From: Octopus vulgaris
Taxonomy: Eukaryota
NCBI GenBank assembly: GCA_951406725.2
Contig: OX597814.1
Location: 211,668,001 to 211,732,000 of the forward strand
Length of the DNA: 64,000 nucleotides
Direction of reading: 5' to 3'
The stretch's first letter is position 1. The number at the start of each line of letters is the position of its first letter. A model generated the notes under the pieces. It had not been told where the DNA came from. It saw only the letters and a list, made by a program, of their open reading frames with translations, and did not search any database. Shown here one piece after another: positions 1-62,879 of this stretch. The translations under genes and the position numbers were made by a program.

Positions 1-487
1 AAAACTGCGCATCCTTCCTAATATACATATCCTTTTCCCAAAATAAATCTGGGTCATTCGTAGTATATTCACTATGAAACACTGAAAAACCTGTGAAAAG
101 AAAGAAAGACATACAAAAATAATTTTATACTTTAAGCAGCCTTATTAAATATAGCTACGATGTGTGAACATGATCGTCAATAATCATAAAGGATTTTCTC
201 TAAAAATTAGTCAGTAATGAAATCACATACACTTACGTAAATACATGCGTGCGTGTGTGAGTATGTGTGTGAGTGTATGTATGTATGTGTGTGTGTGTGT
301 CTGTGTGTCTGGGTGAGTATTCATGCATACGTATGTTTGTGTGGTTATGAGCGTAAGCTTAAGTGACACAGACCATATGTAGGAATAAGTGAAATGTAAT
401 ACAAGTTGTCTATGTTTCAAAGAAACGCGCACACACACACATTTTCACACCTGTGTGTATGTGTTTGTGTGTGTGTGTGTGTACGCG

Positions 488-658
488 CGCGCAGGCGTGG
501 CTGCATGGCGAGAAGCTTCCTTCCAAACCACACTGTTCCGGTTTCAGTCCCACTGCGTGGCATCTTGTGCAAGTGCCTTCTCCTATTGCCGCAGGGTGAC
601 CAAAGCTTTCCCAATGGATTTGGCAGACGGAAACTGAGAGAAGCGTGTCGTATATATA

Positions 659-720
<62 letters not shown>

Positions 721-875
721 TGTGTGTGTGTCTTTTTATGTGTTTTGCCCCCAACACCTTTGCTTGGCACCCGGTGATGGTGTGTTTACATTCACGAAAC
801 AGAAGTTCGGCAAAAAACAATGATACAGTAAGTACCAAGCTTTAAAATAGTAAGCTCTGGTGGCGATACATTCGA
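488..875 (+). mobile_element. tRNA-derived SINE family A (CORE-like), diverged copy
   Basis: Head GCAGGCGTGGCTGCATGG...GGTTTCAGTCCCACTGCGTGGCATCTTG, internal (TA)n, body similar to the copies at 7598 and 26851. Confidence 0.8.
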
Positions 876-1494
876 GCAGCGTATGTTCTCTAATATTTTT
901 AACGTGTTTTTTTATATTGCTTTAATTTTATTTTGGGTTACCTTTATACTTGTTTTATAATATTTATTATCGTTACAGTATTATGATTTTCTGTGTTACG
1001 TGATGTTACTTCATTTTCAGAAATCAGTTTACAAATTCCTTATTAGGATCACGCTACATCTTTCATCATTAAAAGCACTGCTTTCTCTAAAATTTTCACC
1101 CGTCCAAATTACTTTTTTTATACCGTCATACATTCGTAAGAAACTGCTCTAGTGAATTGACATTTGTCCATCAATTTTTACTTAGTTATGCTTAATTCAG
1201 CTATTTCAGAACATGCCCCTCGAGTATTCCGAAGTATATCATTGGCTGTATATTTAATAAAATGTATTTCTGAATAGCTCAAGAGCGGAGTATATACTCA
1301 TTTAAGTCCAATTAACTACAAATATTACCCGAATATCATTCTGCTATTACTTCTGTACAATTTTGGTCTTCATCTATAATTGTGTGTGCATTTTATTCCG
1401 ACCTAACTAGGTGCCTAACCTTTAAGTATCTTGTTCAATTGAATCTTTCTATATTATATACACACACACACACATTTATATACATACATACAAT

Positions 1495-2087
1495 AAGATT
1501 TTATAATAACATATTAACACATTAAGTTATACTAAATATATTATAGTACAGGTAGCCATAGCAATTAAAATAACAAATGCAAAATTAATAAACAAGGATG
1601 CAATATAGCACATAGAAATTGCTAGAAACGAGAACCCAAATTTAACTCATATAACCACCGAAAAGCACTAATCGCATGAAATATTTGGGATCGCGAGTAG
1701 CAAGTCACAGCACCTTTCTTTTGCGAGATACATTCCCAGAATGAAGTAGTGTGGTAAAACATTCTTACGTGATTTCGAAATTTGATTCACAAGATATTGT
1801 TTCTTGTCAGAGGTTTCCACAATTACTCTGGGTTAAGAGATATTCAAAACGGTTAAAATGTATAGTAACATAAACAAGATATTGTAATAATATGTTAATA
1901 TATATTAAACACATTATAATATAGGTGACCATAACAATTAAAACAAAAAATGTAAGATTAATAAATGAGGCTCCAAAATAGCACCTACAATTTCTAGAAA
2001 GGAGAGCCAAAATTTAACTCTAACAGCCATACAAAAAGCAGTAACCTCATGAAATATTCAGGACTGGGAGCAGTAAGCCTCAACATA
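1495..2087. repeat. Old direct duplication (~220-bp units at 1495-1715 and 1872-2087)
   Basis: Collinear shared blocks such as CCATAGCAATTAAAA/CCATAACAATTAAAA, CTAGAAA..AGA.CC.AAATTTAACTC and CATGAAATATT. Confidence 0.65.
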
Positions 2088-2092
2088 TTTCT

Positions 2093-2345
2093 TATTTCTT
2101 TATTACCCACAAGGGGGTAAACACAGAAGGGACAAACAAGGATAGACAAAGGAATTAAGTCGATTATATCGACCCCAGTGCGTAACTGATACTCATTTAA
2201 TCGACCCCGAAAGGATGAAAGGCAATGTCAACCTCGGCAGAATTTGAACTCAGAATGTAACAGCAGAAGAAATACCTACATCTTTACTACCCACAAGGGG
2301 CTAAACACAGAGGAGACAAACAAGGACAGACAGACGGATTAAGAC
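2093..2345 (-). mobile_element. tRNA-derived SINE family B (Meta-domain-like), partial, with a duplicated 3' tail
   Basis: Reverse complement of CCTTTCATCCTTTCGGGGTCGAT..AA and of the tail CCCCTTGTGGGTA.TAAAGA; the tail occurs twice (about 2095 and 2280). Confidence 0.8.
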
Positions 2346-2362
2346 ATTATTCATGTCACTAT

Positions 2363-2620
2363 GGGCATATCACTTAATGGTTAAGAGCGCGGGCTACTAA
2401 CCCCAAGATTCCGTGTTCGATTCCAGGTAGTGACGTGAAAAAAAAAAAAAAATAATAATAATAACAATATCGAAAAATTCATTAGGAAAGAGAACGCAGG
2501 TTCGAAATTTCCCAAAGACACCTGATGAAGGCTGGAGGGTATATCAGCCGAAACGTTGTGTTAACAAAAATCAAGATGAGGACATATCCGTCAAATGTAA
2601 ATAATATAAATAATGTGATC
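2363..2620 (+). mobile_element. tRNA-like head + (A)n(AAT)n + hammerhead-bearing PLE-type 3' end
   Basis: GGGCATAT..TAATGGTTAAGAGCGC...GTTCGATTCC head, A/AAT tract, then a hammerhead. A homologous unit lies on the minus strand at 23561-23800. Confidence 0.75.
2517..2562 (+). ncRNA. Minimal type I hammerhead ribozyme
   Basis: Stem I GACAC/GTGTT; core CTGATGA (2522-2528) plus an extra A; stem II GGCTG/CAGCC; GAAAC (2550-2554); palindromic AACGTT stem III; predicted cleavage triplet GUU. Confidence 0.75.
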
Positions 2621-2959
2621 TTCTATTAGTTTCGAACTTTAGAGATACATTAAATTTGAAGATGTATATAGCATGCCATGCATCTGCAAGCAAGTTTTCA
2701 TACTCAGTTGTATGTTAGCTATATATTTTAAAAACCTGACACTGGTCTGTGACGAAAAATTAGAAAAAACGGGATGAAAAATCCGAAATCAAAGAAAAAC
2801 GCGAAAAGGCTTGATACAAAAATTGAGGAGCGAAAAAAGAACATTTGTGTAAGAAGACCATATATTCCTCTTGTTTTTATTTAGGAACCATAATTAAACT
2901 ACTTTGTGCAGAATAAGATTACAGGAAAGAGGCCAAAATGTGTGAGATAGCTACTCACT

Positions 2960-4240
2960 CTGGAGCGGGTGGTCTTTTCCAGTTCGGCAAAATGAAACTC
3001 TTCCATGTATTTGGATTTTAAAAAATATTTCTGCCCTGGAATTCAGTAATGCTTTGGAATTATTGAACCTAAAATAATGTATGATCTTTCAGCTACGCAT
3101 ATCTTGTATCTCTATGGTCCATTTATATATGGAATAGATTTCTCTACCATTTTCTACATGATTGTATGTGGTACACAGTTCATTTTCAGGTTCCATACAT
3201 GTATTTGCAACTTACGTGCCTTATTTTTTGTCTATGCGTATGAATGAACACTGATGGTTTGAATAAAGGCTTTAACAATATCATTCACCCAAAAAAATGT
3301 CATTTTCCATTTACATTATGTTGCCTTGAAGCACTGCTCTAACTTCTGCTTCTTAAACAACTGTATCACTCAAACACTTCTGATAAAGCAGGCAAGCTTC
3401 ATGCTTTTGAGAGTTACAGCTAGGAATGGGCTTCTGATGTGAGTTACGATTGATAATGTCCATTATATTGGGGCGCAGCTGTTGGAAAGTGAGAATCAAT
3501 TAAAAATCTTCCTGTTTTTGTGGTGTATTGGCAAATAATTGTTTAGAAATGTCATTTATGACACATAGTTCGAACGCTGCCATAGTAGGGGGCTGCTTTA
3601 GCAAACATTTCATTTGAAAAAATAAATTAGATAACCTATTATGAGGTTTTTAACAACTATAGGGGATGCCAAGACAGGTTTTTTTTTTATATATGTGTTT
3701 ATAAGAGTGTGAGTTAAGCCTAAGGAAGCATCTCAAAATTAAATTTGAACAGTTTAGTAGAAAATAATTTTCAGGCCTACTAAGGGTATAAAAGTGCTTT
3801 TCTTTGATTTATCTAGTATATATTCATAATGCACGTAAGTTATGGCCAAACCATCTTGACAATATAAGCCAATGTAATGGGTTGGGAACTTACATCTTAA
3901 AGTGTCTAGTATACAGACGTTCAATATCATGGATGTCTGCATTGTTATGCAATCCCATCGATACTTCAAGCATCGGATCTTTTAACCCATGCCGAGTCGT
4001 TATTGTATAGAAGGTGCTTTTTATGCGCATTCATGTTAAGTTCAAGGTCTATGTGATCAATATTAACTTATGTTTTTGTAGATAATCGGGGGATAATCAA
4101 TGTCAAACTGTAAATCTAGCTCTATGCTTATCTTTTAGATTCCTAAACCAATTTATGAGAATGCTGCAATTTGCTCCTTGTGGTCTGGTAGTCTTCCTAA
4201 TTCTGATATTAATATTCCTAAGTATTTATTTAGCTACTAA
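2960..4240 (-). pseudogene. Penelope-like element RT + GIY-YIG relic
   Basis: Minus-strand peptides LLYNNDSAWVKRSD, IGLYCQDGLA (from GLYRDDGL) and HVWNLK...EKSIPYING..YKICVAE (PLE C-terminus); many stops and frameshifts. Confidence 0.7.
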
Positions 4241-4276
4241 ACCTATTTCAGTTTCGCTGGGTTTAAAATTCTACAA

Positions 4277-4400
4277 GTGGCCTTACTCCTGATATTATGT
4301 CTCAGCAAGGGCTCTGCATGTGTCAAAAGATCCGATACGGATGAATTGTTTGATGTATCCATGGGATGTTTTGAGATATCAGACATAATAAATAAATGCC
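4277..4400 (+). pseudogene. Inverted PLE RT fragment
   Basis: ACVKRSDTDELFDVSMGCF resembles the PLE RT WVKK...FDVTMG motif; same region as the minus-strand piece at about 3950-4010. Confidence 0.6.
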
Positions 4401-5387
4401 TGAGACGAAAATTCAACCCAAAAATATCCAGCGGGAGAGCCAGTTGCATTTCGCAAGTTTTTAGCTTTTCACGCGCACATACACGCAGACACTTTGAAAC
4501 GTAGGCGAGTATTCGTATAGGCGAGTAGTATTCCTATATGGGAAACTTGAATAGAACTTTCTGTGATGTAGTGCATAGACACTATCTGATTAAAAATCTG
4601 CAAGTCGTACACACATGCAAAGATACTCCGCATCCACACACACACATATCTTCCTCACGTATTTATGTATTTAAAGAACGAACTAAATAAAAATCACATC
4701 GAAACATTTCTTAAATATGACTTGTAATGTAGAAATTAAAAAGACATATGCATTTTTTTTATTGCACTTAAAGATTGGCTAAAACAATTTTTGCGTATCT
4801 CTATTCTCTTGGTTATCCTTACAAATGCTTTCGCATTTTTCCTATGCCTGTACTGCACTTGCGATTTCTTTAAAGTGCCCTTTTTCATGTTTCTTGTGAT
4901 GTACTACGAACGTTGCTAAAATATTTTTTTTTCAATTCCCATTTTTGTTACTTAATTCGATTAAATTGTAAATATCGATTGAATACTACAATACACGTGA
5001 AGGAATGATAATTCAAACTAAACTATTGATCAACAAAAGTTTTTAACTAGAGCATGAAACCAGCCTGAGTGTACAACAGAAATGCATTTCACTGTATTTT
5101 AAGTATCTGTGCAAACCTAACCATGTGAAAAGGACAAATAGGGCAAGCGACTGCATTTGAAACATCCTCATTCATTCCTGTTTAGTTAGTATTTCCTTCC
5201 GTTCTCTACTCTCTTCCTCAATATATTATCTCTTACGTTTCATTTCATAAATATACCTGAGTGAATGTGTGTATGTGCGTGTGTGCGTGTGTCTGTGTGT
5301 ATATGCATGTCTTTGTGCATGTATATGTGCGTATCTCTGCCTATGCGCACGCATGTATGAGTATATGCGCATTCATATGTGAGTTTA

Positions 5388-6344
<957 letters not shown>

Positions 6345-6620
6345 GTATATATTAATGTATCCGGGAAGAGTCATTCCCTTTTAGTACATTATAATTTAAT
6401 AGACTCAGTACTAAAAGTTCCACTTATTTCCTTCTTTACATTTCTACACTTTTATTTGCATCTTGCAACTTTTTCAATAGTTTTTACTCAAAACTATTGA
6501 AATGTTTGCAAGACGCAACGAAAATTTTTTTAAAATAAAGAAGGAAATTAGTGGAAATATTTACCGGTGACTGTATTAAATTATGAGGAACTAAAAGAGA
6601 ATGACGCTCCCTAGACACAT

Positions 6621-6683
<63 letters not shown>

Positions 6684-6879
6684 GTACATATATGTATGTG
6701 TGTACTTATATGTAAATACGATATACGTACGTGTGTATATATGTATAAAGGTTTTTTTCTATGTGTAAAATAACTTCTCAGCCAATAATATTCAATTGTT
6801 ATATAGATATATAAAAATAATGATATTGATAATGTAGCGGATATCCTGCGTTGTTCGGGATTAATATGGTATAGTTTTT

Positions 6880-7090
6880 ACTTTTATTCTTTTACCTTTT
6901 CAGTCATTTGAGTGCAACCATGCTGGATAAACGCCTTTGTTCGAGTAAATCTACCCTAAGAGTTATTCTTTGTAAGTCCAGTACTTATTCTATCAGTGTT
7001 TATTGCCATATCGCTAGGGTACGCGGACGTATACACACAAACATCGGTTGTCAACGGATGTTGGGACTAAAAGCACAGACACACACACAA
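6880..7090 (-). mobile_element. SINE family A, 3' half, diverged
   Basis: TTTCAGTCATTTGAGTGCAACCATGCTGGA...AGTACTTATTCTATC...CATCGGTTGTCAA match family A. Confidence 0.75.
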
Positions 7091-7247
7091 ATATATTCAT
7101 GTATTTATGCATATATATAAATATATATATATGCGTGTGTGTGTATGTATGTATATACGTATATAGATGGATATATATATATATATATATATATCTGTGT
7201 GTATATGTCTGTATACGCATATATGTACATATGTGTGTATGTATATG

Positions 7248-7302
<55 letters not shown>

Positions 7303-7597
7303 GGCTAATTCATAAACTCGGAATATAACTTGTAATCAGAAATTAATGTGCGTGAGTTGAAGAGTGAAAGAGGGAGAGTGATAGAAAAAAAAAGAAGCAT
7401 CACAGACTAACAGTGAGGAACTCTTAGAGATGTTAAGGGAGAATATGTTTAAGTAAGAGAAACAGAGAATGAGAAAAAGAAAGAGAAGACATAAAGAAAC
7501 ATATATTAAAGAAGGAGAGTATCGGTTGAAAACTTTAGAAGTACATACGTACGGCACACGTCCACACACACATACGTCCTTTGTTTCATATATATAT

Positions 7598-15170: not shown

Positions 15171-15929
15171 TTGATGGTTAAATGTGTATATATCTTAAAT
15201 GAACTAAGTTTTTATATCATGTATTACTTAACACATGTGTATAAGTGCAATTTCGTGATATATTCACGCTTATTTACGTGGCAGATATATGCAAAGTTTA
15301 ACACGAGGTTGTACCATATGTACGGGGTGTTATTTTTGTTTGCTTGTAGGAGAAATGAAAAAAATATGAGTGAATATTTATTTTATGAGTGCTATGTACT
15401 AAGTCTTTAGAATTGTGCATAATGTATATGAAGTGTATATATAAAGTGGATTAAATACTCATCGTATTCCAATTTCTTTAACTTTTCAATGTTTAGCAGA
15501 TGAGCGACTCTTTCCATACAGACACATCACAGGCTACGCCTTCAGACTTTTTGGATAACGTTTTTAGAAATAACCCAAAAGGGTTCATTCCATGAAATAT
15601 CCACTGGTACCGCCAGTTTTTATTAATGATATAATGCCATATACAACGTATAGTAGCGTCCATAATATAAGGGTCTGTAAGAACAAGTGTATTGAAATAG
15701 TTATTACAGAAGATTAACGGCACATTGAGACTAGATATTTTAGACATATTTAGATACTTTTGATAAATATCTTTCGTGAAAATTTCAAGTAAATAGAATT
15801 ATTTTGTATGTTGTGAGGAAATATAAAAAATCCTCCAAATTGCAGCGGCCAAAAGTTTCGCTGCAGTTCAGAAGACTGTTAATGGGCTAACAGTTATTTC
15901 TTATGATCTTTCATTACTGGAACATTCAA

Positions 15930-16935
15930 ATGTCAACATAGCTACTTGTGAGAGACAACCGGTGTCCTGTGATGAAAAACAAAGGATTTTTTCCCTCACC
16001 AAGAGGGAAAAAGTTATGTGATAGCATCTACTATAGGAAGGTCTAGAAGTGTTATGCAACAAATTGTAGCTCGTTTTAAGTCATAAGGATCGGCAGATGC
16101 TAAAGCTAAAACCGGTAGACCTCGTAAAACTTCACCAAGACAGGATCTATTATGGTTAGAATGTCACTGAAGGATAGGTTTAAGAGTGCTGCTGAGACAT
16201 CCCACGAGTTTAGTTCCGCTTTTCGATGTCAGCGTATTGAGCAAAACAGTTTCTCGGAGGTTACGAGCTTCTGGGTTGCTTGCCTGAGTACCGGCAAAGA
16301 ATCCTTTGATCTCCAAGAAGAATCAAAGAGCCCGTCTTCATTTCATTTACGAACATAAATCGAAGTTTCATGTGATTGGTTACGATGGCAGGATGTACGT
16401 CCGATTAAGAAGTGGCGAAAGGTTGTCTCGTGCATGTGTGAAGAAGACAGTGAGATATGGAGGAGGCAGTGTAATGGTATGGAGATCGATGTCTGCTGCT
16501 TATCTTTGTCCACTGATTCGGTTAAAAGGGACTGTCAATTACAAGGGACTGTCAATACTAAAGTCTACAAGTAGATTTTTAGATAGCATTGCCCTTCCAT
16601 ATCTCCGATCCTCATCAGTTGAACCTCATACCTTCGTGCAGGACAACGCCTCCTGTTACACTGCAAAGAGAGTCAAACACTTTTTGATTGATGAAAGGGT
16701 TGATCTCATGGATTGGCTACTTCAAAGTCCCGATTTCCACCCTATAGAAAACGTTTGGAAGATTATTGCAGATGAGGCGCGCGGGAGGAATCCAAAGAAC
16801 CAAGACGAAGTTTGGGAATTATTCAGAAAAGAATGGAACAATATTACTCCATCATGTTGCAAGAAATTAATTCAGTCCTGTGGTAACAGATGTCAGGAGG
16901 TCATTAATAATAAATGGACGTTCACAGAATATTAA
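15930..16935 (+). pseudogene. Tc1 transposase pseudogene
   Basis: TGRPRK linker, KTVRYGGGSVMVW, and QDNASCY...SPDFHPIENVW with 34 residues between D and E. The N-terminal half is frameshifted and the first catalytic D region is degraded. Confidence 0.9.
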
Positions 16936-17334
16936 TACTCTCTTTTACTCTTTTACTCCTTTACTTGTTTCAGTCATTTGACTGCGGCCATGCTGGAGCG
17001 CCGCCTTTAGTCGAGCAAATCGACCCCGAGACTTTTTCTTTGTAAGCCCAGTACTTATTATATCGGTCTCTTTTGCCGAACCGCTAAGTGACGGGGACGT
17101 AAATACACCAGCATCGGTTGTCAAGCAATGCTAGGGGGACAAACACAGACACACAAACATATACACACACATATATATATATATACATATATACGACAGG
17201 CTTCTTTCAGTTTCCGTCTACCAAATCCACTCACAAGGCATTGGTCGGCCCGGGGCTATAGCAGAAGACACTTGCCCAAGATGCCACGCAGTGGGACTGA
17301 ACCCGGAACCATGTGGTTGGTTAGCAAGCTACTT

Positions 17335-19559
17335 TATTTCAAAACATTTGCCATAAAGGCAGTACACAGATTAAGTTAGCTTTGCGGGCTGGACGAGGAC
17401 ATTAATGAGGTGAATGATAATGAAAGAAAGATGATAAGGATGGGAGAAGACAGAAAGCGCCCGCCGACTTTTGCTTCTCTAAAACATTGTTCTTTTTAAA
17501 AAAGATTAACACAAAACGAGGTATTAAACCTCTTACAATTTTTCCAATTTTGGGCTTAGCAGTCCATTATTAATACAAAACGAGGTATTAATCCTCTTAC
17601 AATTTTTCAATTTTTGGACTTAAGTCCATTACTAATAATACATATCGTCCTCGAAATAGCTTGTGCCCGCGCCCTCCACCATCAACCACGCCTCCCTCAG
17701 AACGTAGTCAAGTTCCGAGTTCGCGTCGCCCGGGACCAAGTTATAGTCTTCATTGAGCTCCTTTAGCCCTAGCGTCACGTCGAACGCCACGGCCTCCACA
17801 GCTACCTGCGGAGGCCATTCGGGGTCCTGTGTGAATGCTAAAGGTGCTCCCTTGTAGTGCTCTTCCATCACTTTTTCAATTTCTCCTCCTCTATAGAAGA
17901 GGACCAATACATTCAGTTCTTTCGTTGGCGGCACAGTTTCCGCCAACGGTATTCCTTCTCTTGTCGGTGGCACAACCCCAACCGACGTAGTTCCGCGACA
18001 TTCCGGTGCCACACTGACAGCCGGCAACGTCCCGTTTTTCTTCCTCTTTTTCTTTTTTTTTCCCTTTTCAACTGAGGGAGGGTGCGTCTCCTCCGTGGCT
18101 GGAAGATTCGCCCTCCTCTCCTCATCCCTATTATCCTTTGGTGAGCACCCATTGTTGCTCACCTTCCTCTTTCGGCCTCTGCTTGAGGAGTCCTCTGCTT
18201 TCTCGGCCGTTATCGTTCCCTCTTCTAGAGGGGTTTTACTTAACTGTTCCGGGATCCTATTTTGTTCCCGAGGACAGTTCTTCTTTATGTGGCCGGACTC
18301 CAAGCACCGATGACACTTAGGGGGCGACCCTCAAGCATCACCGGGTACCTGCACCCGGCCATTTTCAAAAAATCTGGAAAAAACAGATTGGCTGATTGGG
18401 TCCACAGGGTCAAAACTGCTTTCGAGCCAACCCAAGCAGCCGCAGGAAGAACTTTTACATTGAGGAGCTTAGTTTCGCTGTCACCCAGACCCCGGCGGAT
18501 AGTCTCCTCTATCCACTCGGGTTCAATGTCGGGTGGCAGTCCGCAGATCCAAGCTTTCATTAAGTTCTTTTTTTTGTAAGTGGGCAGGAATAAGATTTCC
18601 TTACCCTCCAAGGGTTCGCTAGCAAATTTGCAAGCCTCTTCAGGGGTGTCAAACAGCAACCACACCGTTCCATATTTGACACCCCTGGAAATGAATTTAA
18701 TTGTTGGCAAATACTCCTCCAACTCCTCCTCAATTGCCGTTTTTTCGAATAGGGCGATGGTGTCAAGTGCCTTGGAGTAGGTTCTCAACACCACCGTCCT
18801 ATCTTCACGGTCCTTCAACCACTTTTTGGGTGGTATGATTTCCCACTCCAAAACTTTGTTATTTTTCATTGCCATGTTTTTTAAAAAATATATTCAAATT
18901 AGACTCAAAAGCAGGAAGAAAAAAGTTCAAAAGTCTAAATAAATTTGATAGATTTTTGAAAAAACAAAAAGGAGAAAGCACAACAGAAGGGAAGAAATTA
19001 ACGGAAAGTCGCAATAAAGAAAAAACAAAAGGGGGGGGGGGGTAAATGAAGTTCAAAAGAAAGTTAATAAACAGAAAAAACACAGCAAAAATATTCTGCG
19101 GTACTCCCGGCCTGGGTTGAACCTGGAACGCCGCAACTGCAACACAACCTCCACAAAAATGGGTCCGAAAGGTAATCCAATAGTGGCTTATTTTTATACT
19201 TTTCTTGCGAAGTACTCTGACAAGGGAATAAATTCAGCAAACTCAAACACAGCACTGGTTACTGCCAACGGTAATTTTAACAGTAACTGTATTGAATCCT
19301 GAGTATACGCCCCTCCACTGTTTTTTCTTTTTTTTTTTTTTTCAATGAACACAAAAACGGCAGCCGCCTAGCGCAGGCGAAATTGTCTCAGAGTTGGACA
19401 CAACCTACTGAAATAATAATTGGCACGCAATAAATTATGCCCAACTCACAATAAACAAAATCACTTACCTCGACAACTTTCCGTTTTTGGTCTTTTTTCT
19501 TTAGTTGGACTCACGTCCACTCTAGCTCAACAAGAAGCAACCGACTAACTGCGCATGTC
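17335..19559 (-). mobile_element. Non-autonomous ORF1-only (HAL1-like) Tx1/L1-type retroelement inserted in the SINE head
   Basis: Perfect 17-bp TSD TGGTTAGCAAGCTACTT (17318-17334 and 19560-19576); ~680-bp 5' UTR, gag-like ORF, ~300-bp 3' UTR, no RT. Confidence 0.85.
17632..18875 (-). CDS. Gag-like ORF1 protein (~414 aa) with a CCHC zinc knuckle; one frameshift
   Basis: ORFs 18285-18875 and 17632-18303 join if one C is added in the C5 run (18320-18324), giving LEGRPPKCHRCLESGHIKKNC (CX2CX4HX4C). RRM-like ICGLPPDIEPEWI lies upstream; basic NLS-like stretches downstream. Confidence 0.8.
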
Positions 19560-19874
19560 TGGTTAGCAAGCTACTTACCACACAGCCACTCCTGCGCCTA
19601 TCAATAGTAGAGTTTTCTTGTTTGTTCTTGTCCTATTTTCTTTGTATTTTCTAAGTTGCACTTAATATTTGGCTGTGGCAATTTAGCAGGTAATTTTGTT
19701 TATTTCCTCATAATGTACGAAACCATTATTCCATTCATTTGAAATTTTTACGAGGAATAGGTATTAGATATATCTAAGTATACGTAAAATATCTATTCTC
19801 AACATTTTGTTAATCCCCTCTAATAAATATTTCAATACACTTGTTCTTATTGACCCTTATACAATGGCCGCTAC

Positions 19875-19927
<53 letters not shown>

Positions 19928-23560: not shown

Positions 23561-24385
23561 ATGAGGCATTATGTATATTATTTACAATTGACGGATATTT
23601 GTCTTCATCTTGTTTTTTCTTACCGCAACGTTTTAACTAATATACCCTCCAGCCTTCATCGAGTGTCCTGGGAAAATTTCGAACCTGGTTCTCATAAGGT
23701 ATTTTTCGATGTTGTTGTTATTGTTGTTATTATTATTATTATTATTATTCAGGTCCTTGGGGTTAGCAGCCGGCGCTCTTAACCACTACGCCATATGCCC
23801 GTGGGCAATTATGGAGTGCAATTTAGGGCTTATAAATCTAATATTTTCATATCCTTCCTTATTACTGGTTCCCAAATGCTGTTATCTATCTATTATTTTA
23901 ACTTCATCCCACAGGGGAAGGTGGTCTCCATTTTTCCATAAATGATCAACTATACTCGATTTATCAATATTTCCCCGTGTCACAGCTTTGCGATGTTCCT
24001 CTACCCTTATTTTGAGGGGGTGGCATGTTTCGCCTTTGTATAACCTACCACAGCTGCATGGGATGGAGTACACGCACTTCTTAGTCATAGTCCCTTCTAT
24101 TCGAGGCTTTACTCGAATGAGATATTTGCGAAGTGTTGTATTACTTTTGAATACTGTCCTGATGTCATATGGGCCGCATATCTTTTGTAACTTTTCGGGG
24201 AGGCCTTTTACTTAGGGTAGACAGACTGTGAAAAGTTTATCGGTTTCCTCCTCTGTTTTCTTCCTAATTGGAGTGGAGAGAATGCTTTTGGGGTAGTTGT
24301 TGTTTAATAGATTGTTACTGAGCTTGATCGTTTCTTCGTGTTGTGTATCTCGATCGCAACTTATAATCTTTGCTCGATGTTTTAG
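23561..24385 (-). mobile_element. PLE 3' portion: GIY-YIG relic, tRNA-like cassette and degraded hammerhead
   Basis: CVYSIPCSCGRLYKGETCHPLKIRVEEH (GIY-YIG). On the minus strand it is followed by GGGCATATGGCGTAGTGGTTAAGAGCG, (AAT)n and TCGATGAAGGCTGGAGGGTATATTAGTTAAAACGTTG. Confidence 0.85.
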
Positions 24386-35875: not shown

Positions 35876-37286
35876 CAATAATTAAGGGTTTAGCAACAAG
35901 TTGCTTGACCGCATACCGAACATTTTAGAAATAGCAGCCAAAAGACTGCTATTTCTTTTTTTCTACAAAAATATGTATCCACAGATAACAATATTTGTAA
36001 CTCACAATGAAATCAACCAGTCTCATACACACAAAAACACATATACGCATCCACCCATAGCTATGCATAGAAGTTAGTGAGTTAGCCTGAACTTTGCCGC
36101 TTCAGATAATATTCCGCTGTGGGTTGGTTTTTATGTGTACCAATGTTAACAAAGTTAACTCGTTTCTCATTTTAGCAAAAGGCTGGCCTTTTTTTTTTTT
36201 TAGTGTGTGATTAATTAGTTTCACTACATCGACCGCAGTTGTTAATCAGTGCTTATTTCTATCGATCCTGAAAGGAGGTATGGTAAAGTCCACCCCAGCA
36301 ACGTGTTAGGATTAGCCGGTTAAAACCTTCCACATAATAATTGACTTAATAAACGATTGTAGCTATATATGAAACTCAAGCTAGATTACTCCCGTTTTTA
36401 GCCCTCTCTATTTCGAGCTTACTTTGAACTTTATAATTATCATAAATTTTATTAATAGTAATTTTCATTTAAATAATTTAACATTATGCTATCTTCAGAT
36501 TATACGATTTGCAGAATCGATAGAACATCGGAATAAATATTATGTTGTATTAAGTAATCTTATTTTCATTCTCATTTTATTTCACGCCGACGGGCAATTT
36601 GATTTTCATCAGGCATTGGTTTGATAAAGTATTCGTAAGCCGCTAAATCTGCTGTTGTGTGCCAATGCTCTCTTTCGATAATTACAGGTAGCTATTTCAA
36701 AATGCTAGAAAAATAAAGCAATTTGAACGTAGCTTTCGTAAGAAGAAAAATAAGGAAACGCTGAGGGCAGATTTGAAATTGCGAAACTCGATGCAACTCC
36801 TCAGCACCTCATCCGCTCGAAAGTGTCTTGCATAAAGACACAAGAAGTTAACCTGTATCACATTTAACCATAACTTCTCAGCATGAATTTAGAGCTTTCT
36901 ATTATATTGATATTGATGTTATATCTATCGACGCCTTGTAATCTCATGTAGCCTCTATTTCCATACAAGTAAAAGAAACAGCTAGACATTGATTTTCAGT
37001 TCTTCTAACAGTATAATTTATGGTAAATGATTTCCATTGATTTTTTTTTAAATGATTGGATGATAATGAGTACAACAAAATTGAAATTTAATACTAATGG
37101 AAGTTATCTCACCACATTAGACGTATCTACAGAATAAATTAATACAACCATCTTCAGACTACTAATTGTGAACCATATCTCAGTGAAATGAACAATTATA
37201 TAAACAGAAAACAAGATAGACTAGTTTGACTGTTATCGAACTGAATTTGACTGAATAAGAACTAGCAATACTTATTCAGACGTAAT

Positions 37287-37741
37287 ATTGGTTTCAAATT
37301 TTGGCACAATGCCTGCAGTTGCGGGAGAGAAGTAAGTTAATTACATTGACTCCATTGTTTAACTGGTACTTCATTTATCGTCCTCGAAAGGAAGAACGTC
37401 GAAGTCGGCCTTGGCGGAATATGAACATAGTATGATGGACGAAATGCCGTTGAGCATTTTACCTGGTGTGTGACCGATTCTGCCAGCTCGTCGCCTTAAA
37501 CTATATATTAAGTCTTAATATGGCGGCGAGCTGGCGGAATCGTAAGCACAGCAGGACATGATACTTAGTGGCATTTCATCCGTCTTCACGTTGTAAGTTC
37601 AAACACCACAGAGTACGACTTTGTCTGTCATCCTTTCGAGATAGATAAAATAATTACCAGCGGAACAGTGGGGTCGATGTAATCGACTAACCCCTTTACC
37701 CCCGAAAATGCTTGTTTCGTGCCAAATTTTAGAACCAATAT
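37287..37741. mobile_element. Head-to-head pair of SINE family B copies (37287-37497 minus, 37521-37741 plus)
   Basis: CTGCCAGCTCGTCGCC, a ~23-bp spacer, then GGCGGCGAGCTGGCGG; outer ends TATTGGTTTCAAATTTTGGCAC and GTGCCAAATTTTAGAACCAATA. Confidence 0.8.
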
Positions 37742-38573
37742 TAATATACATTCGGCATATTTCTAAGAAAAACCTGTTTTAATCGAATTTACATTTGAAT
37801 CAAATTTTAATCAAATTTACTTTTGAATTCTACTGAAGGAATTGTGCGTTTCCTTTTGATATCAACAAAGAAACCTTTCATTTCTAGATAATTCAGATAT
37901 GGATTTCAATATGACAAGTCAACTAACCTAGTAAACAGTAAAATGTGGAATAGATAATCGAAGAATGTATGTGTTGCATAAACACTTATTTTAACTTTAC
38001 TTGCGGTTCCAGAGTAATGTGGTTTACTACACGGTTTCATTGTAAACCTAGATGCAGTACAAAATCTGATAGTTGTCTTCGAGTAGGATCTTCGTCAACT
38101 TCTACACAAACGAAAGGCCTTCGATTCTTATATGTAAAGACACGGATACACGCAACATGAGATAATTAACAGTTGATATTCTACAGGTTAGTTTACAGCT
38201 TTATAACAAGGAAACACTCTTTTAATAATATAGACTACACTTGAAAATATAGATTGACTATACTTGATAATATAGTTTGAATAAATATGCTCTCAATGTT
38301 CTTCTTCATAGACCTGTGTGAAACAGGCAATTATTGCACATTTATATGCTGTCCTGCAAACTCCTCTAATTTCATAAATTTTACAACGTAAACAATCTCT
38401 CACTCAGTACCACGACATGTCTGTATGTAATATGTACGACATATGACATTTTGCTGCTAGAATACGTTAATATATTCAGGATATTCTCCATACAAAAGAT
38501 CATGCACATGCACAAGGAAATGCACCTGCACAAGGAAATGAACTCACAGTTTTGTTTGTTTGTTTGTGCGTGA

Positions 38574-39741: not shown

Positions 39742-39950
39742 TGCCTCCTACTAAAGGTACAAGGCCTGAAATTTGTTGGGAGGGGTTTAATCGATAATAT
39801 CGACCCCAGTGTTTCACTCATACTCAATTTACTGACCTGTAAAGTATGAAAGGCAAAGTTGACCCCGGAGTTATTCAAGCTCAGAACGTTAAGACGAAAT
39901 ATCGCTGAACATTTCGCCCGGCTTGCTAACTATTCTGCCAGCACACCGCC
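39742..39950 (-). mobile_element. SINE family B
   Basis: ATCGACCCCAGTG...TGAAAGGCAAAGTTGACC...CATTTCGCCCGGC..GCTAAC..TTCTGCCAGC. Confidence 0.75.
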
Positions 39951-40001
39951 ATATTTATCTTGTGTAATAAAATAACTACCATTTATACAAGCAGTCTAAA
40001 G

Positions 40002-48704: not shown

Positions 48705-49902
48705 TCTCTTTACGTACTTGTTTCAGTCATTTGACTGCGGCCATACTGGAGTACCGCCTTTAGTCGAGCAAATCAACCCCACGAAGAATTATTCTTTGTA
48801 AGCCTAGTACTTATTCTATCGGTCTCTTTTGCCGCTCAGCTAAGTTAAGGGTTTGTAAACACACCACCATCGGTTGTCATGTGATGTTGGGGGGGGACAA
48901 ACACAGACATACAAACATATACATACACATACAAATATATATATATATATATATATATACACGACGGGCTTCTTTCAGTTTCCGTCTACTAAATCTACTC
49001 ACAAAGCTTTAGTCGGCCCGAATCTATAGTAGAAGACACTTGCCCAAGTTGCCACGTAGTGGGAATGAAGCCAGAATCATTAGCTACTTTATTTCAAAAA
49101 TTTTGCCATAAAGTCATGATACAGATTAGCTTGCGGGCTGGACAAAAACATTGCTGAGGTGAATGATGAAAATGATGATATTAATGGGAGAAGACAAAAA
49201 CGCCCGCTGATTTTTGCTTCTCTAATATATTATTCTCTTCTTTTTTCACAGTAAAAGACAAAACGAGGTAATGAACATCTTACTTCAGTTTTACAATTTG
49301 TGGACTAATAGTCCGTTTAAGAATTGGGGCGTTAAGCCTCTTAAACACAATAACATGCAATAAACATTAAACATTTTACAATAAACATTATAAAACTGAG
49401 GCTTTTCAACTTATTGTCACTATTCCTCCCCAACATCACTTGTGTGTGTATACTCAACCATCTCCTACGCCTCACAATGACAAAAAATTTTCACTTAATG
49501 TGAACACTTGAAATACGGCTTTCCAATAAGAGGTAAATGTTGCTGTAAAAACAAACACTATTAAAACGTGAACAACCTTTGGTTGAAGGATACGCCCCAA
49601 ACTGTACTTCTCACTGTGAGAAAAAAAATCCACTTAATGTGAACAGTATTGCTGAACCACACGCCGACCAACATCCTGAATCCAGTGAAGACTCCTTGTT
49701 TGTAAAAAAATATAACTACAAACAACAACCCCCACTGGACCCAAAAGACAAAAGTCTTACCTTGCAGCAGCTACTTTTGGCAGGCTAAACACCGCCGGCT
49801 ATCTTCCTCAGTGCACAGCACAATGACACATGCTTACACTGACAATAGAGACTCGCGGGAAGTAGGTAAGCAAGCTACTTACCACACAGCCACTCCAGCG
49901 CC
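48705..49902 (-). mobile_element. SINE family A, split by a 0.78-kb insertion at the same site as the 16937 copy
   Basis: Body runs to ...AGCTACTT (49089); the head resumes GGTAAGCAAGCTACTTACCACACAGCCACTCC at 49865. Confidence 0.88.
49090..49864 (-). mobile_element. Non-coding relative of the SINE-targeting retroelement
   Basis: The first ~230 bp (TATTTCAAAA..TTTGCCATAAAG...TTGCGGGCTGGAC...GGGAGAAGAC...CAAAACGAGGTA) align with 17335-17570, and the junction is identical. Confidence 0.82.
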
Positions 49903-49944
49903 TATACATATATATATATATATATATATAGACAATTTTTGTTT

Positions 49945-50230
49945 CAGAATGAGATAAAAAATACAAGTCTGTGAAGGATTTTAGAACATTTATACATAGG
50001 TCTTACAGCTGTTTCCAGGCTATTTATTATATCCCTTTATCAGAGACGGTGTAAAAAAATGTTTAAGCAACAGTTAATTTAGATAAGTTGCGAAACAGAG
50101 TGCAGTGAAGGAATGAAAATAGATGTGAGATATGCAGGAATATTGCATTTGTAGATCCATTATTTAGGTAGAATGGTATACATATAAAATTCCAATACCT
50201 TCTGAGTAAAATCCAATAGAGTTTGTACAC
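49945..50230 (-). mobile_element. PLE-type terminal repeat with a hammerhead motif (50000-50047)
   Basis: Homologous to 59285-59580; minus strand reads GTCT-CTGATAA-stem-GAAAC-AGCT-GTA-AGAC. Confidence 0.7.
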
Positions 50231-53894: not shown

Positions 53895-54105
53895 TTCTAC
53901 TAGAGGCACAAAGCCTGAAAGTTTGTGGGGAAGCGGCTACTAGGTTACAGCGACAACAGGCTTTACTGCTATTTTTTCTATCGACTCCGAAAGGATGAAT
54001 GGGGCAAAGTTGAGCTCGGTGGAATTTGGACTCAGAGCATAAAGACGGACGTAGTGCCGCTAAGTATTTTGCTCGGCATGCTAAAGAGTTTGCCTGTTCA
54101 TCATC
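53895..54105 (-). mobile_element. SINE family B, diverged
   Basis: ATCGACTCCGAAAGGATGAA...GGCAAAGTTGAGCTCGGTGGAATTTG. Confidence 0.7.
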
Positions 54106-56141: not shown

Positions 56142-56550
56142 GGCGCAGGAGCGTCTGCGTGGTAAGTAGCTTGCTTACCAACCGCATGGTTCTTGGTTCA
56201 GTCCCACTGCGTGGCACCTTGAGCTACTATTTTCTACTATAGCCTCAGGCCGACGTAAGCCTTCTGAGTGGATTTGGTAGATGGACACTGAAGGAAGCCC
56301 GTCGTATATATGTATATGTATATATGTGTGTGTGTGTGTGTTTGTCTGTGTTTGTCCCTCTGCCAACATCGCTTGACAACCTATGGTGCTATGTTTACTT
56401 CCCCGTAACTTAGCGGTGCGGCAAAAGAAGCCGATAGAATATGTACTAAGCTTACAAAGAATAAGTCCTACGGTCGATTTCCTCGAATAAATGCGGTGCT
56501 CCAGCATGGCTGCACTCAGATGACTGAAACAAATAAAAGAGTAAAAGAGT
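56142..56550 (+). mobile_element. SINE family A, full-length, diverged
   Basis: GGCGCAGGAGCG..TGGTAAGTAGCTTGCTTACCAACC head and GAGTAAAAGAGT tail. Confidence 0.88.
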
Positions 56551-57005
56551 ATATATATATATATAAACATATTGTATATTTTTAGGTATGTGCATATCAG
56601 TGTGTGTGAGCGTGTGAGCGCTGGTGTTTTTTTGTGTGTTAGTGTGTGCGTGTGTGTGATCATATTCACATATACTTATATGATTAAACATTTGCCTAGG
56701 CCCAATTCAGCTCATTCGATCGTTTAGTGAACCCCTGACTACACAAGTTGCAAGTGCTCAAACCTCAAAAAGGTGATGTAAATTTATATTTTGGACCTGA
56801 CCATTCCATTTCGACCCAATGATCTCACTAATCCGGCGGACTAGAGTTGAGCAGTAACTTTTTATGTGCTATACACTAGACGTAACCAGCACACCAATTC
56901 TGACGCCTTGGTAACCATGGGCTCATTTCATCTCCAAAATTTTCGTGTCCTTCCTCATCAACCTAGCTTGTAAGTGTTAAGCGGAATAGTATGCAAATAT
57001 ACAAC

Positions 57006-57236
57006 GGCGGCGAGCTGACAGAGCCGTTAGCACGCCGGGCGAAATGCGTAGCCGTATTTCGTCTGCCTACGTTCTGAGTTCAAATTTCGCCTAGGTCGAC
57101 TTTGTCTATCATCCTTTCGGGGTCGATAAATTGAGTACTAGTTACGCACTGGAGTCGATATGATCGACTTAATTCATTTGTCTGTCCTTGTTCGTCCTCT
57201 CTGTGTTTAGCTCCTTATGGGTAGTAAAGAAATAGG
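57006..57236 (+). mobile_element. SINE family B, full-length
   Basis: GGCGGCGAGCTGACAG head through GGGTAGTAAAGAAATAG; flanking duplication GTATGCAAATATA. Confidence 0.88.
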
Positions 57237-57359
57237 TATGCAAATATATGCACGTCATACTGCTACACCTATTACTTTTTCTTCCCTCACCCGTAATAAA
57301 TCCAAACAGTACTACCGTCTCCTCAGCACTTCGTCTTTTAGACATTCCCATTAACTTAG

Positions 57360-58154: not shown

Positions 58155-58385
58155 CGGCGAGCTGGCAGAATCGTTAGCACGTTGGGCGAAATGCTTAGCG
58201 GTATTTCGGCTGCCGTTACGTTGTGAGTTCAAATTCCGCCGAGGTCGACTTTGCCTTGCATCCATTCGGGGTCAATAAATTAAGTACCAGTTACGCACTA
58301 GTGTCGATATAATCGACTTAATACCTATGTCTGTCCATGTTTGTCCCCTCTATGTTTAGCCCCTTGTGGGTAATAAAGAAATAAG
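58155..58385 (+). mobile_element. SINE family B inserted in the retrozyme-like repeat
   Basis: Near-identical to the copy at 62445-62675. Confidence 0.9.
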
Positions 58386-58541
58386 TATACAACCACTCTT
58401 CGCTCAGCCACCGCTCATGTCTCTTTGAGACATTTAGAAATTTAATATTTCTGATTACGGTAACCAGTGAATAGATTTCACTGTAAATATATATATATTT
58501 GTGAAGGCTGGACGGGCACCTCAATCAGCAGATCTCACTAT

Positions 58542-59193: not shown

Positions 59194-59270
<77 letters not shown>

Positions 59271-59284
59271 ATGTATACGCATTC

Positions 59285-61200
59285 TTTGCGTAATGAGATA
59301 AAAAAACAAGGCTGTATAGATATTAGAGCATTTATAAATAGAAGGTCTTACAGCTGTTTCTAGAATATTAATAAATAATACCCCTTCATCGGAGACGGTG
59401 TGAGATGAAAAATTAAGACAGAGTTAGTTTTGATGTGATACAAATAGAGAGTGAGGTGGAGGAAAGAAAATAGATGTAATATGTGTATGTGTATTGAGTT
59501 CGTAAATCCGTTTTATAGGCATAATGGTATATATGTGTAATATTTGAGTAAGATCCAAAAGTCCAATAGAGTTTAACATGAGTCCATCCAGATGTAGAGT
59601 TTATAAGCAATGTAAGATTCCCTTAAAATTGGTCATTCCCAACAGGGAATTTATATATAGCGTAGCAGATTCAAGTTTTGTGTTTAAACTGGCCTAGAAA
59701 TAGGGAGTGGGTTAGTATGGTCAAATTGAAAACAAGAAGAGATGAATGGCAACAACAAAAAAAGGAAAAAAGGGAGGAGATAAAAGAGGAGAGAAAGAAA
59801 GAATTAAAGAGAAAGAAGGAGATTAGTAAAAACAAAGAATAAAATAAAGATAAAGAATAAAACCCATGAAGGTATGAATAAAGGGAATAAGGAAAAGAAA
59901 AAAGAAAAGTTAAGATATAGGTTGGTCAGTGGTCTGTGAAGATAGTTTAAAAGTAGAAGGGGGGATAGAGAGAGAAAGGTATTATTGTATAAATGATAGA
60001 GGAATGGGGGTGTTAAGAGGTAGAGGAAGTACTAAGTGTAGTAGTATCTTTTAATTGTGAGGCAAATATATGAAGAATTAAGAATTAAGCAAATAGCAGA
60101 GTTAATTATTCTGAGAAAGTATTTATGGGAAAATATTTATGTGAAGATGTATATACACGTATATATCAGATAAGTTACAAATACAATCCTCGTGTATCAT
60201 CGTTCCCACATATGCAGTTATCTATAATTTGCATGTGTATAAATGTTTACATAAACTCACATGCATACCCTCACTCGTACATATATACGCGCGCATGGGT
60301 GTGTGCGTGTATATATGTAAATGAAAATATATTTCTTTATTGCCCACAAGGGGCTAAACATAGAGGGGACAAACAAGGACAGACAAAGGGATTAAGTCGA
60401 TTACATCGACTCCAGTGTGTAATTGGTACATAATTTATCGACCTAGAAAAGGATGAAAGGCAAAGTCGACCTCGGCGGGATTTGAACTGAGAACGTAGTG
60501 GCAGACAAAATACCGCTAAGCATTTCGCCCGGCGCGCTAACGTTTCTGCCAGCTCGCCGCCTATGTAAATGAATATAATCAGATGGTTGCATATGTGAGA
60601 AACTAGGGGTTTTATTCTTTATCTTTATTTAATTTTTTGCTTTTACTAATCACCTTTCTGCTTTCTCTTAATTCTTTCTTTCTCTCCTCTATCTCTCCCC
60701 CTTTTTTTTCTTTTTTTTTTTGTTGCCATTTCTCTCTTTTTGTTTTCAATTTGACCATACTAATCCACTCCGTATTTCTAGGCAAGTTTCAACACAAAAC
60801 TTGAATCTGCTACACTATATATAAATTCCCTACTGGGAATGACCAATTTTAAGAGAATCTTACATTGCTTATGAACTCTACATCTGGATGGACTCATATT
60901 AAACTCTGTTGGATTTTGGATCTTACTCAAAGGATATTGGAATATTATACATATATACCATTATGCCTATAAAACAGATTTTCGAACTCAATACCCATAC
61001 ATATCTTACAACTATTTTCTTTCCTCCATCTCACTCTCTATTTGCATCACATCAAAACTATGACTTAATTTTTCATCTCACACCGTCTCCAATGAAGGGA
61101 TATTATTAATTAATATCCTAGAAACAGCTGTAAGGCCTTCTATCTATAAATGCTCTAATATCTATACAACCTTTGTTTTTTTTATCTCATTACGCAAAAA
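59285..61200. mobile_element. Inverted PLE-type terminal repeats (59285-59865 versus 60607-61200), each with a hammerhead motif
   Basis: ~585-bp inverted arms; hammerhead motifs at 59345-59396 (minus, CCGATGA) and 61085-61136 (plus, CCAATGA), both followed by GAAAC-AGCT-GTA. Confidence 0.8.
60330..60561 (-). mobile_element. SINE family B, full-length
   Basis: Reverse complement of the 62445 copy; TSD TATGTAAATGAA. Confidence 0.9.
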
Positions 61201-61339
61201 ATACATATATACACACGTTGACATAGAACCAACGTTGAACCCTTCATTCACAATAATAGCGAATCTGGAACTTAACTATGGTCTGTCTATAGCACATGTT
61301 CAGCATTACCTGACACCTTTGGGTCTCAATTACACCATT

Positions 61340-61613
<274 letters not shown>

Positions 61614-62444
61614 GGCAACCAATATTTATTTTTATATACAGACCTATAATCTTCGTAATTTTGAAAAATCTTTAAATCATTTCTTTTCGCTAATTCTATT
61701 TCTTCACTGCATTTCTGATATTCTTTGATAATTCCTTTTCGCTGCTAATATGTGGACTTTATCGTTATTGAAGCAATTCTATTTTCTTATTAATAAGCTT
61801 TCATTGTGTTCTTTTGTAATATCTGCATTAATAACTATGTCATTATATAAAAAAGAAAAACTTGGGAATTAAGTTAATACAAAACTATTTTGTGTCTCTT
61901 TATTGACTTCAGATTAACACTTAACAAAGGCGTCTCGAAATTTGAAAGAAACCTAAAAGTTTACAGTTTACAAAAGAATGTACGTTGAGTGAACGTTATA
62001 TTAATGTGAAATCCACAATAATAATGTTTGTCTATTTACTGAGATTTGTATTTGCATTATACTTTCTTTTAAAACGCTTGCATTCTCGAAATACATTTAA
62101 AGAATTGTTTTCCTAATTGAAATTGGATTAAGTTTTCAACTATCGTACTTTAGATAAAATCAATTAGAATAGGCGTAGAAAGCATTATTTTGGAGAACTA
62201 TTTATATGTTACAATTATTAATGCTTTAAACGAAATTATCATTATAAATAAGTCATAGTCATTGATGTTTCACAAAGAATAATCTCTAATCGCCATGTTT
62301 ATGTGACGGAACGCTTATTGAAGTACATATTGCATTGGATTATGAGTAAATCAATTAAAATTGTTCCGTTTCGTGACCGATGAACTGTGGTTTTTGAAAA
62401 TGGTATTAGATAGTGTTTGCTTCTATTGAATATATTATTTTTAA

Positions 62445-62675
62445 GGCGGCGAGCTGGCAGAATCATTAGCGCGCCGGGCGAAATGCTTAGCGGTATTTCG
62501 GCTGTCGTTACGTTGTGAGTTCAAATTCCGCCGAGGTCGACTTTGCCTTTCATCCTTTCGGGGTCGATAAATTAAGTACCAGTTACGCACTGGGGTCGAT
62601 GTAATCGACTTAATACCTATGTCTGTCCTTGTTTGTCCCCTCTATGTTTAGCCCCTTGTGGGTAATAAAGAAATA
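62445..62675 (+). mobile_element. SINE family B, full-length young copy
   Basis: A box AGCTGGCAGAATCATTAG, B box GAGTTCAAATTCC, GCCTTTCATCCTTTCGGGGTCGATAAATTAAGTACCAG central domain. Confidence 0.92.
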
Positions 62676-62879
62676 GATATTAAATAGGATTTGCTTCTAT
62701 TGAATTTATTATTTTTAAGGCTGCGAATGGAAAAGAATATACCATTATTGGATATATACAACAGTGCAAGAAATATAGCGTCCCAATTTCTGTTTCAAGA
62801 AGAGCATTCCACAAGTATATAGAACTGATGTTATGCAATTAATATTATTGTCATATTAAATATTCTACATTATACCGAG

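Follow-up and report, generated by a model that had tools for sequence, protein, structure and literature searches.

Two SINEs within 64,000 nucleotides of Octopus vulgaris DNA (contig OX597814.1; this whole stretch is hereafter the window) are interrupted at the same nucleotide by related inserts of different structure, one of 2.2 kb at 17335–19559 (minus strand; locus 1, hereafter the 17335 element) and one of 775 bp at 49090–49864 (minus strand; locus 2). In our judgment these are probably non-autonomous copies that inserted independently at one SINE nucleotide by means of a sequence-specific, probably Tx1-type LINE enzyme acting in trans, with the 775-bp copy representing a one-off internal deletion within an ORF1-bearing sister family. 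Neither insert contains an ORF2, and we infer both the Tx1-like clade and the autonomous partner.

The 18-mer AGCTACTTTATTTCAAAA, which spans the junction, occurs exactly twice in the 64-kb window (at 17327 and 49082), confirming an earlier claim by the first-pass annotation that two SINEs are split at the same nucleotide; no third copy was present in the window at up to three mismatches (shuffle mean, 0.19). At locus 2 the minus-strand host SINE breaks after AGCTACTT (49082–49089) at 49089 and picks up again at 49865 with GGTAAGCAAGCTACTTACCAC, and both inserts are oriented as their host SINE. By simple arithmetic, the chance that two random insertions in a 416-bp SINE coincide in both position and direction is ~1/830. 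Locus 1 has a perfect 17-bp target-site duplication (TSD; 17318–17334 and 19560–19576) with TTAG in both copies, which is the host's own variant and is also found in two of three young empty SINE copies. The right copy at locus 2 (49865–49880) has 16 bp matching the SINE and the older TAAG variant, as in an older empty copy, and the left copy is a remnant of 8 bp (49082–49089) next to a 13-bp gap relative to the other SINE copies in the alignment, in agreement with the partial deletion proposed at first. Each TSD was also to be checked against its own host variant: both copies at locus 1 and the right copy at locus 2 fit their hosts, but the test is incomplete at locus 2 because the deletion in the left copy removed the diagnostic base. 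Overall, a host-matching TSD (17 bp at locus 1, with 8 bp left on the left side of locus 2) and a 3′ end common to both inserts are the features of target-primed insertion.

The two hosts belong to different SINE subfamilies. Host 1 is of a young subfamily, with its body at 16960–17334 (minus strand) and its head continuing at 19560–19599, and host 2 is of an older subfamily, with its body and tail at 48713–49089 (minus strand; the 13-bp deletion lies just left of 49081) and its 5′ end at 49881–49903 (minus strand). The latter holds an A-box-like motif (49881–49892), and the insertion lies directly 3′ of it. We assigned this label, and that of a degenerate B-box-like motif at 49061–49072, by eye against the pol III consensus; the host SINE may be one of the published octopus OK/OR SINEs. 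ARAGORN predicted no tRNA genes and Rfam gave no tRNA match in the whole window or in one empty head; the other Rfam matches on the whole window (miRNA, snoRNA, scaRNA) were microsatellite-driven and below the gathering score, and we discarded them. With the central microsatellite excluded, the identity of host 1 is 96.1, 94.9 and 94.6% to three of the empty copies and 86.6% to host 2; host 2 has several older states in common with the empty copy at 56537. The SINE alignment thus agrees with the initial description of the host at 49082 as a more diverged variant, and it contains no column that unites both hosts against all four empty copies.

Because the two hosts are of different subfamilies, we regard the insertions as independent, as had been suggested from the outset; the missing shared column and the host-specific TSD variants also support this. 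Target specificity would not be needed if a single SINE-plus-insert composite had been copied, or the junction spread by gene conversion, with the interior replaced later; the copied composite was one of the refuters that the first-pass annotation had named for itself. The junction is indeed identical at both loci, and the occupied share, two of seven heads in a single window, greatly exceeds the crude genome ratio given below. Nevertheless, host 1 groups with the empty young copies, host 2 shares its older states with 56537 with no derived column in common, the right-hand TSD copies differ in variant with each fitting its own host, and the common insert end (75–80%) is more diverged than the hosts (87%). 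Given this misfit to host subfamilies and TSD variants, we consider an ancestral composite very improbable.

Public DNA runs provided further copies of the insert. Part of it was present in 8 of 24 listed runs (three organism labels, five studies), and we aligned the four best to 48962–50050 at 80% likeness, the best of which may be the window's own source. In all four, contigs with a non-window majority letter reach left to 49080–49081, through AGCTACTT to the edge of locus 2's own deletion, and right to 49893–49895, through the TSD and the SINE head. Assuming that end distance is measured on the aligned part, this reach implies one or more on-target paralogs in each run and does not give a fraction of paralogs. 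Four of the listed pieces extend to the 3′ junction: three align 6–8 bases into the target and one (X2 record 10) only 2; this last piece may be off-target or bear an A tail. So far, both complete loci and three of the four listed junction pieces are on target, for comparison with the Kojima criterion of more than 20% of flanks in one repeat. The target preference claimed initially is therefore supported by the same junction occurring twice and by paralogous contigs aligning into the target at both ends in 4/4 runs, and we regard site specificity of the insertions as likely, with good confidence. Patterns for the junction and the 3′ end had no matches in viral contigs and none in one metagenome search; a second metagenome search returned one match (L001), which we rejected as chance (24% GC and otherwise unlike the window).

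The window contains seven head-bearing SINE copies, one of which (510–926) is only 68–73% like the others. Two are occupied, so the count given at first was right for the window, but it cannot be taken as typical occupancy given a crude depth ratio of ~1:700–1:1100: summed contig depth of SINE versus insert end was 676:1 to 1072:1 across the four runs, a quantity that differs from copy number and is to be read as an order of magnitude only. At an occupancy of 0.1–1%, the probability of two occupied among seven heads is 2e-5 to 2e-3; local clustering or the choice of an unusual window may account for the 2/7. Joints that skip the insert, and hence represent empty sites, are present in all four runs. 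Among SINE loose ends in the runs, the most frequent consensus (places 49069 and 49080) has GGGAAG and GCTTCTT, versus GGTAAG/GGTTAG and GCTACTT in the occupied hosts, and the differences between this consensus and both occupied hosts fall inside the duplicated target. Occupancy may depend on SINE subfamily.

The 17335 element consists of a 684-bp 5′ UTR, ORF1 only and a ~300-bp 3′ UTR that holds a tandem duplication (17505–17575 and 17569–17637). ORF1 (17632–18875, minus strand) is a single ORF split by a frameshift into two overlapping frames (18875–18288 and 18330–17632), with two predicted RRM folds and one CCHC knuckle; a 74% identical protein, P0002, reads through to the knuckle. An AlphaFold model of P0002 (30 aligned sequences; pLDDT 80.8) resembles tandem-RRM proteins (Foldseek E about 1e-4; VIA best Z 8.7, rmsd 2.5, 75 residues). 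The zf-CCHC family was found in 7 of the 30 aligned ORF1 members and an endonuclease or reverse transcriptase family in none of the 30, and a profile search of 6512 proteins of 1092–3115 aa gave no match. Seven of ten ORF1 relatives looked up are Octopus proteins, and the C-terminal part of ORF1 matches none of 33 proteins and nothing in the Atlas. RRM(s) followed by a CCHC knuckle, as found here, make up the type I ORF1 of the Tx1 clade, a type not exclusive to Tx1; in the accessible part of one survey, RRM/zf-CCHC ORF1s in non-mammalian animals are consistent with this clade (PMC5203782). We rejected two other candidate affiliations. P0001, a model from Octopus that includes an integrase domain, might have pointed to an LTR element, but only about its first 46 residues are alike and we read it as a chimeric gene model. 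Helenus/Ajax TRIMs have TSDs of 4–5 bp, as far as the available text of PMC10886601 goes, and the inserts have no LTRs.

Locus 1 is a triple nest (15649–19878), with its SINE sitting within a Tc1/mariner-type element that has a DDE_3 match at 16288–16932 and a 77% inverted repeat at 15649–15853 and 19668–19878. Elsewhere in the window, a 109-aa frame at 23882–24211 (minus strand; no Pfam match) resembles by eye what we take to be the GIY-YIG end of a Penelope-like element. A second dispersed repeat of ~240 bp, 70–95% alike, is found at 2091–2350, 37283–37743, 39781–39953, 53945–54094, 56997–57243, 58155–58392, 60324–60581 and 62427–62681. A further repeat lies directly right of host 2 (49903–50224) and at 59250–59865 and 60607–61209, with 59274–59865 and 60607–61209 forming an inverted pair (88.5%).

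From its 3′ end, the 775-bp insert begins with a segment in common with the 17335 element (49090–49317, minus strand), with 74.9% identity between 49090–49316 and 17336–17568 and 203 of 253 aligned columns identical. This segment ends in GAAATA, which together with the first two target bases makes AATAAA, without a poly(A) tract. Its folding was no better than that of shuffles (z −0.18 and +0.32), and the two-sequence consensus has a 6-bp G–C helix that never varies and is hence uninformative. There follows a family-specific part of the 3′ UTR (49318–49423, minus strand) that is multicopy in all four runs, with 15–49 contigs carrying a non-window letter at 49394 and 49413, and then a probable, though weak, remnant of the last ~17 ORF1 codons (49424–49473, minus strand). 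The remainder (49474–49864, minus strand) is a multicopy 5′ untranslated part with a 36-bp internal repeat (49471–49506 and 49610–49645, 83%). When 49471–49864 was compared with the 5′ part of the 17335 element (18876–19559), the local score was 13, against 12.6 ± 1.6 for shuffles, of which 142/300 were as good; no stop-to-stop ORF exceeds 79 aa in the insert; and tblastn with the 33 ORF1 relatives gave one match to it under E 0.5, at E 0.44. The 5′ part is accordingly unrelated and non-coding, as first described. The companion statement that the inserts overlap only in a ~230-bp 3′ end is correct for that end but overlooks the weak extra match at 49424–49473.

Both inserts carry a splice-donor-like AGGTAAG on the minus strand (19464–19470 and 49756–49762), at 90 and 103 nt from 5′ ends that are unrelated in other respects; this was noticed post hoc, and the 7-mer occurs six times in the window on both strands. 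An acceptor-like tract in the 775-bp insert ends at 49614; searching the 17335 element's 5′ UTR with the same pattern yielded none. It would be unusual for an intron to be retained in a 5′ UTR.

Supporting a remnant of ORF1, 49424–49473 aligns without gaps to the last ORF1 codons of the 17335 element (17645–17694) at 33 of 50 positions (BLAST E 0.022), with the next best in the window at 26. None of 1000 shuffles reached 33, for a 50-mer that was picked after the BLAST, and the run-majority letter at 49438 is the letter of the 17335 element. The segment also aligns loosely to the insert's own 49571–49609, and at the protein level the ORF1-tail match scored 23, which 724 of 1000 shuffles equalled. 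This likeness ends at an anomaly in the runs. The whole insert is covered by many contigs, 6 to 74 of them with a non-window letter per tabulated site, except at 49473, where depth was 60, 39.4, 60 and 0 in the four runs versus 441–7587 at 49438 and 49517; relative to these adjacent sites, depth drops 36- to 110-fold in three runs, and the fourth has no coverage there. Pieces from paralogs break off at 49452 or 49474 and, among the pieces listed, two plus-strand contigs end at 49452 with 136 and 141 unaligned letters (overhangs of minus-strand pieces were excluded, as their direction is ambiguous). Because depth collapses and paralogous pieces stop there, the join at 49473 appears close to unique and paralogs likely have extra sequence at this point, with the caveat for single-locus depth that contigs drop rare variants. 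We thus place a putative deletion breakpoint at 49471–49476, a near single-copy join of two multicopy halves with a 3-bp CTC microhomology. The 775-bp insert would then comprise the 5′ UTR, ORF1 tail and 3′ UTR of a sister family from which most of ORF1 was deleted here, and we think this probable.

A multi-tier system had been proposed initially, consisting of an autonomous LINE, an ORF1-only element and a non-coding element. This did not hold up: no autonomous LINE was seen and the 775-bp form appears to be single-locus. For the 775-bp form to be a mobile non-coding family, a third tier beside the other two, is in our view unlikely. Both of its halves are multicopy and without an ORF, rare forms can be dropped from contigs, and a precedent exists in SINEU-3, described in the available portion of PMC4494074 as the short non-coding partner of a target-specific Tx1 LINE. 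However, a SINEU-3-like element would have its short form at many loci, and here the join has roughly single-locus depth in three runs and is absent from the fourth, whereas the majority letter is found in as many as 47 contigs at 5′-part sites; the breakpoint also falls where the 50 bp that resemble ORF1 end. A deleted copy is therefore likely to be the better reading. Equally unlikely, we believe, is that the targeting was the same but the parent of the 775-bp copy was an autonomous LINE with ORF1 and ORF2, in which case the likeness to the ORF1 tail would be chance and 49318–49473 would be 3′ UTR. The ORF1-tail match is not significant as protein and the length of the piece deleted at 49474 is not fixed. 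Also in its favour, the 13 recently active L1-Tx1 families of O. vulgaris comprise 421 insertions and 2.29 Mb (PMC13282606 Table 1, from the accessible part of the paper), an average of about 5.4 kb per active insertion. Against this, the DNA alignment is colinear and needs no gaps, no other non-self match in the window scores as high (33 versus 26 for the next), and the majority letter at 49438 agrees with the 17335 element. An ORF1-only parent therefore remains our preferred reading, with a HAL1-like layout (ORF1 then 3′ UTR, without ORF2) present at locus 1 and weakly indicated at locus 2. The 775-bp copy is old, in that the listed paralogous pieces mostly differ from it at ~8–17% of sites; the 17335 element is younger and agrees with the run majority at 9 of the 11 3′-end sites tested.

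Target-primed reverse transcription is an established mechanism, and under the deleted-copy reading it would act here as follows. The partner's ORF2 would bind the conserved ~230-nt 3′ end and nick just 3′ of the SINE's A-box-like motif, reverse transcription would be primed in place through the two-base overlap of the AATAAA end with the target, and a second, staggered nick would give rise to the target-site duplication. Insertion would part the A and B boxes and so silence that SINE copy, and later losses at locus 2 would have removed the bulk of ORF1 and some of the left duplication. Candidate partner LINEs exist, because O. vulgaris has the 13 recently active L1-Tx1 families; the words 'target' and 'nested' are absent from the available text describing them (PMC13282606).

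Known site-specific LINEs hide in rRNA, snRNA, microsatellites and DNA transposons, and the SINE head would offer very many harmless sites, with each insertion disabling the pol III promoter of a competing element. If a partner LINE were found, its endonuclease would add to the known specificities and make it possible to examine whether SINE targeting evolved from the targeting of tRNA genes. Repeat annotation of octopus genomes would split or mislabel such nested copies. A more speculative scenario, which we hold to be possible though rather doubtful, is a long-lived ORF1-only lineage that swapped its 5′ UTR, kept its 5′ splice donor and trailed the most abundant octopus SINE through subfamily turnover, always beside the A box. 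It would be a hyperparasite that switches off SINE promoters, maybe giving ORF1 to its partner LINE as HeT-A does at telomeres.

Finally, we compared the octopus inserts with known systems, as these are described in the accessible parts of the cited papers. Dada DNA transposons likewise target tRNA-type sequence near the A box, with families that insert in tRNA genes, many within the A box itself (PMC8869645), and the inserts could on that ground be a Dada-like derivative directed to tRNA-type promoters. Dada elements differ, however, in having a DDD/E-type transposase, a TSD of 6–7 bp and sites at tRNA nucleotides 8–13 or near the anticodon (PMC8869645), compared with a TSD of 16–17 bp, a site just 3′ of an A-box-like motif and a sole ORF of RRM-RRM-CCHC type here. 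TSD length and ORF type contradict membership, and we rejected this candidate as extremely improbable. ORF1- or Gag-only non-autonomous elements include HAL1 (half-L1) and Drosophila HeT-A (PMC5753468, PMC5537684), but HAL1 derives from mammalian L1 without a named target and HeT-A targets chromosome ends, whereas the octopus ORF1-only layout occurs at a fixed SINE site. As proposed for the octopus inserts, SINEU-3 of crocodilians is a short non-autonomous element sharing the target preference of a Tx1 partner, with 313 of 347 copies flanked by Mariner-N4_AMi (PMC4494074); it is multicopy and U2-derived, in contrast to the 775-bp form, which looks single-locus and LINE-derived. Within the open-access literature, including the available text of PMC9115989, PMC12988792, PMC8967140, PMC4758252, PMC3531059, PMC3747384 and PMC10886601, we found no report of an octopus LINE targeting a SINE head or A box. 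Precedents thus exist both for ORF1-only derivatives and for LINEs directed at other transposons, and what we did not find described is the SINE A-box target in octopus. Targets of the Tx1 clade include Tx1D, Mariner-N4_AMi, Harbinger, LTR elements, U2, U5 and 5S genes, satellites and microsatellites (PMC4494074, PMC1950540). Among its members, Tx1L in Tx1D (Xenopus) and Tx1-Mar in Mariner-N4_AMi (crocodilians) resemble the octopus inserts in occupying a preferred position inside a high-copy mobile element, and their ORF1 is of the RRM/CCHC type, as in the 17335 element. The targets named for the clade do not include SINEs, whereas the octopus inserts lack ORF2, belong to the Tx1 clade only putatively and occupy the head of a SINE.
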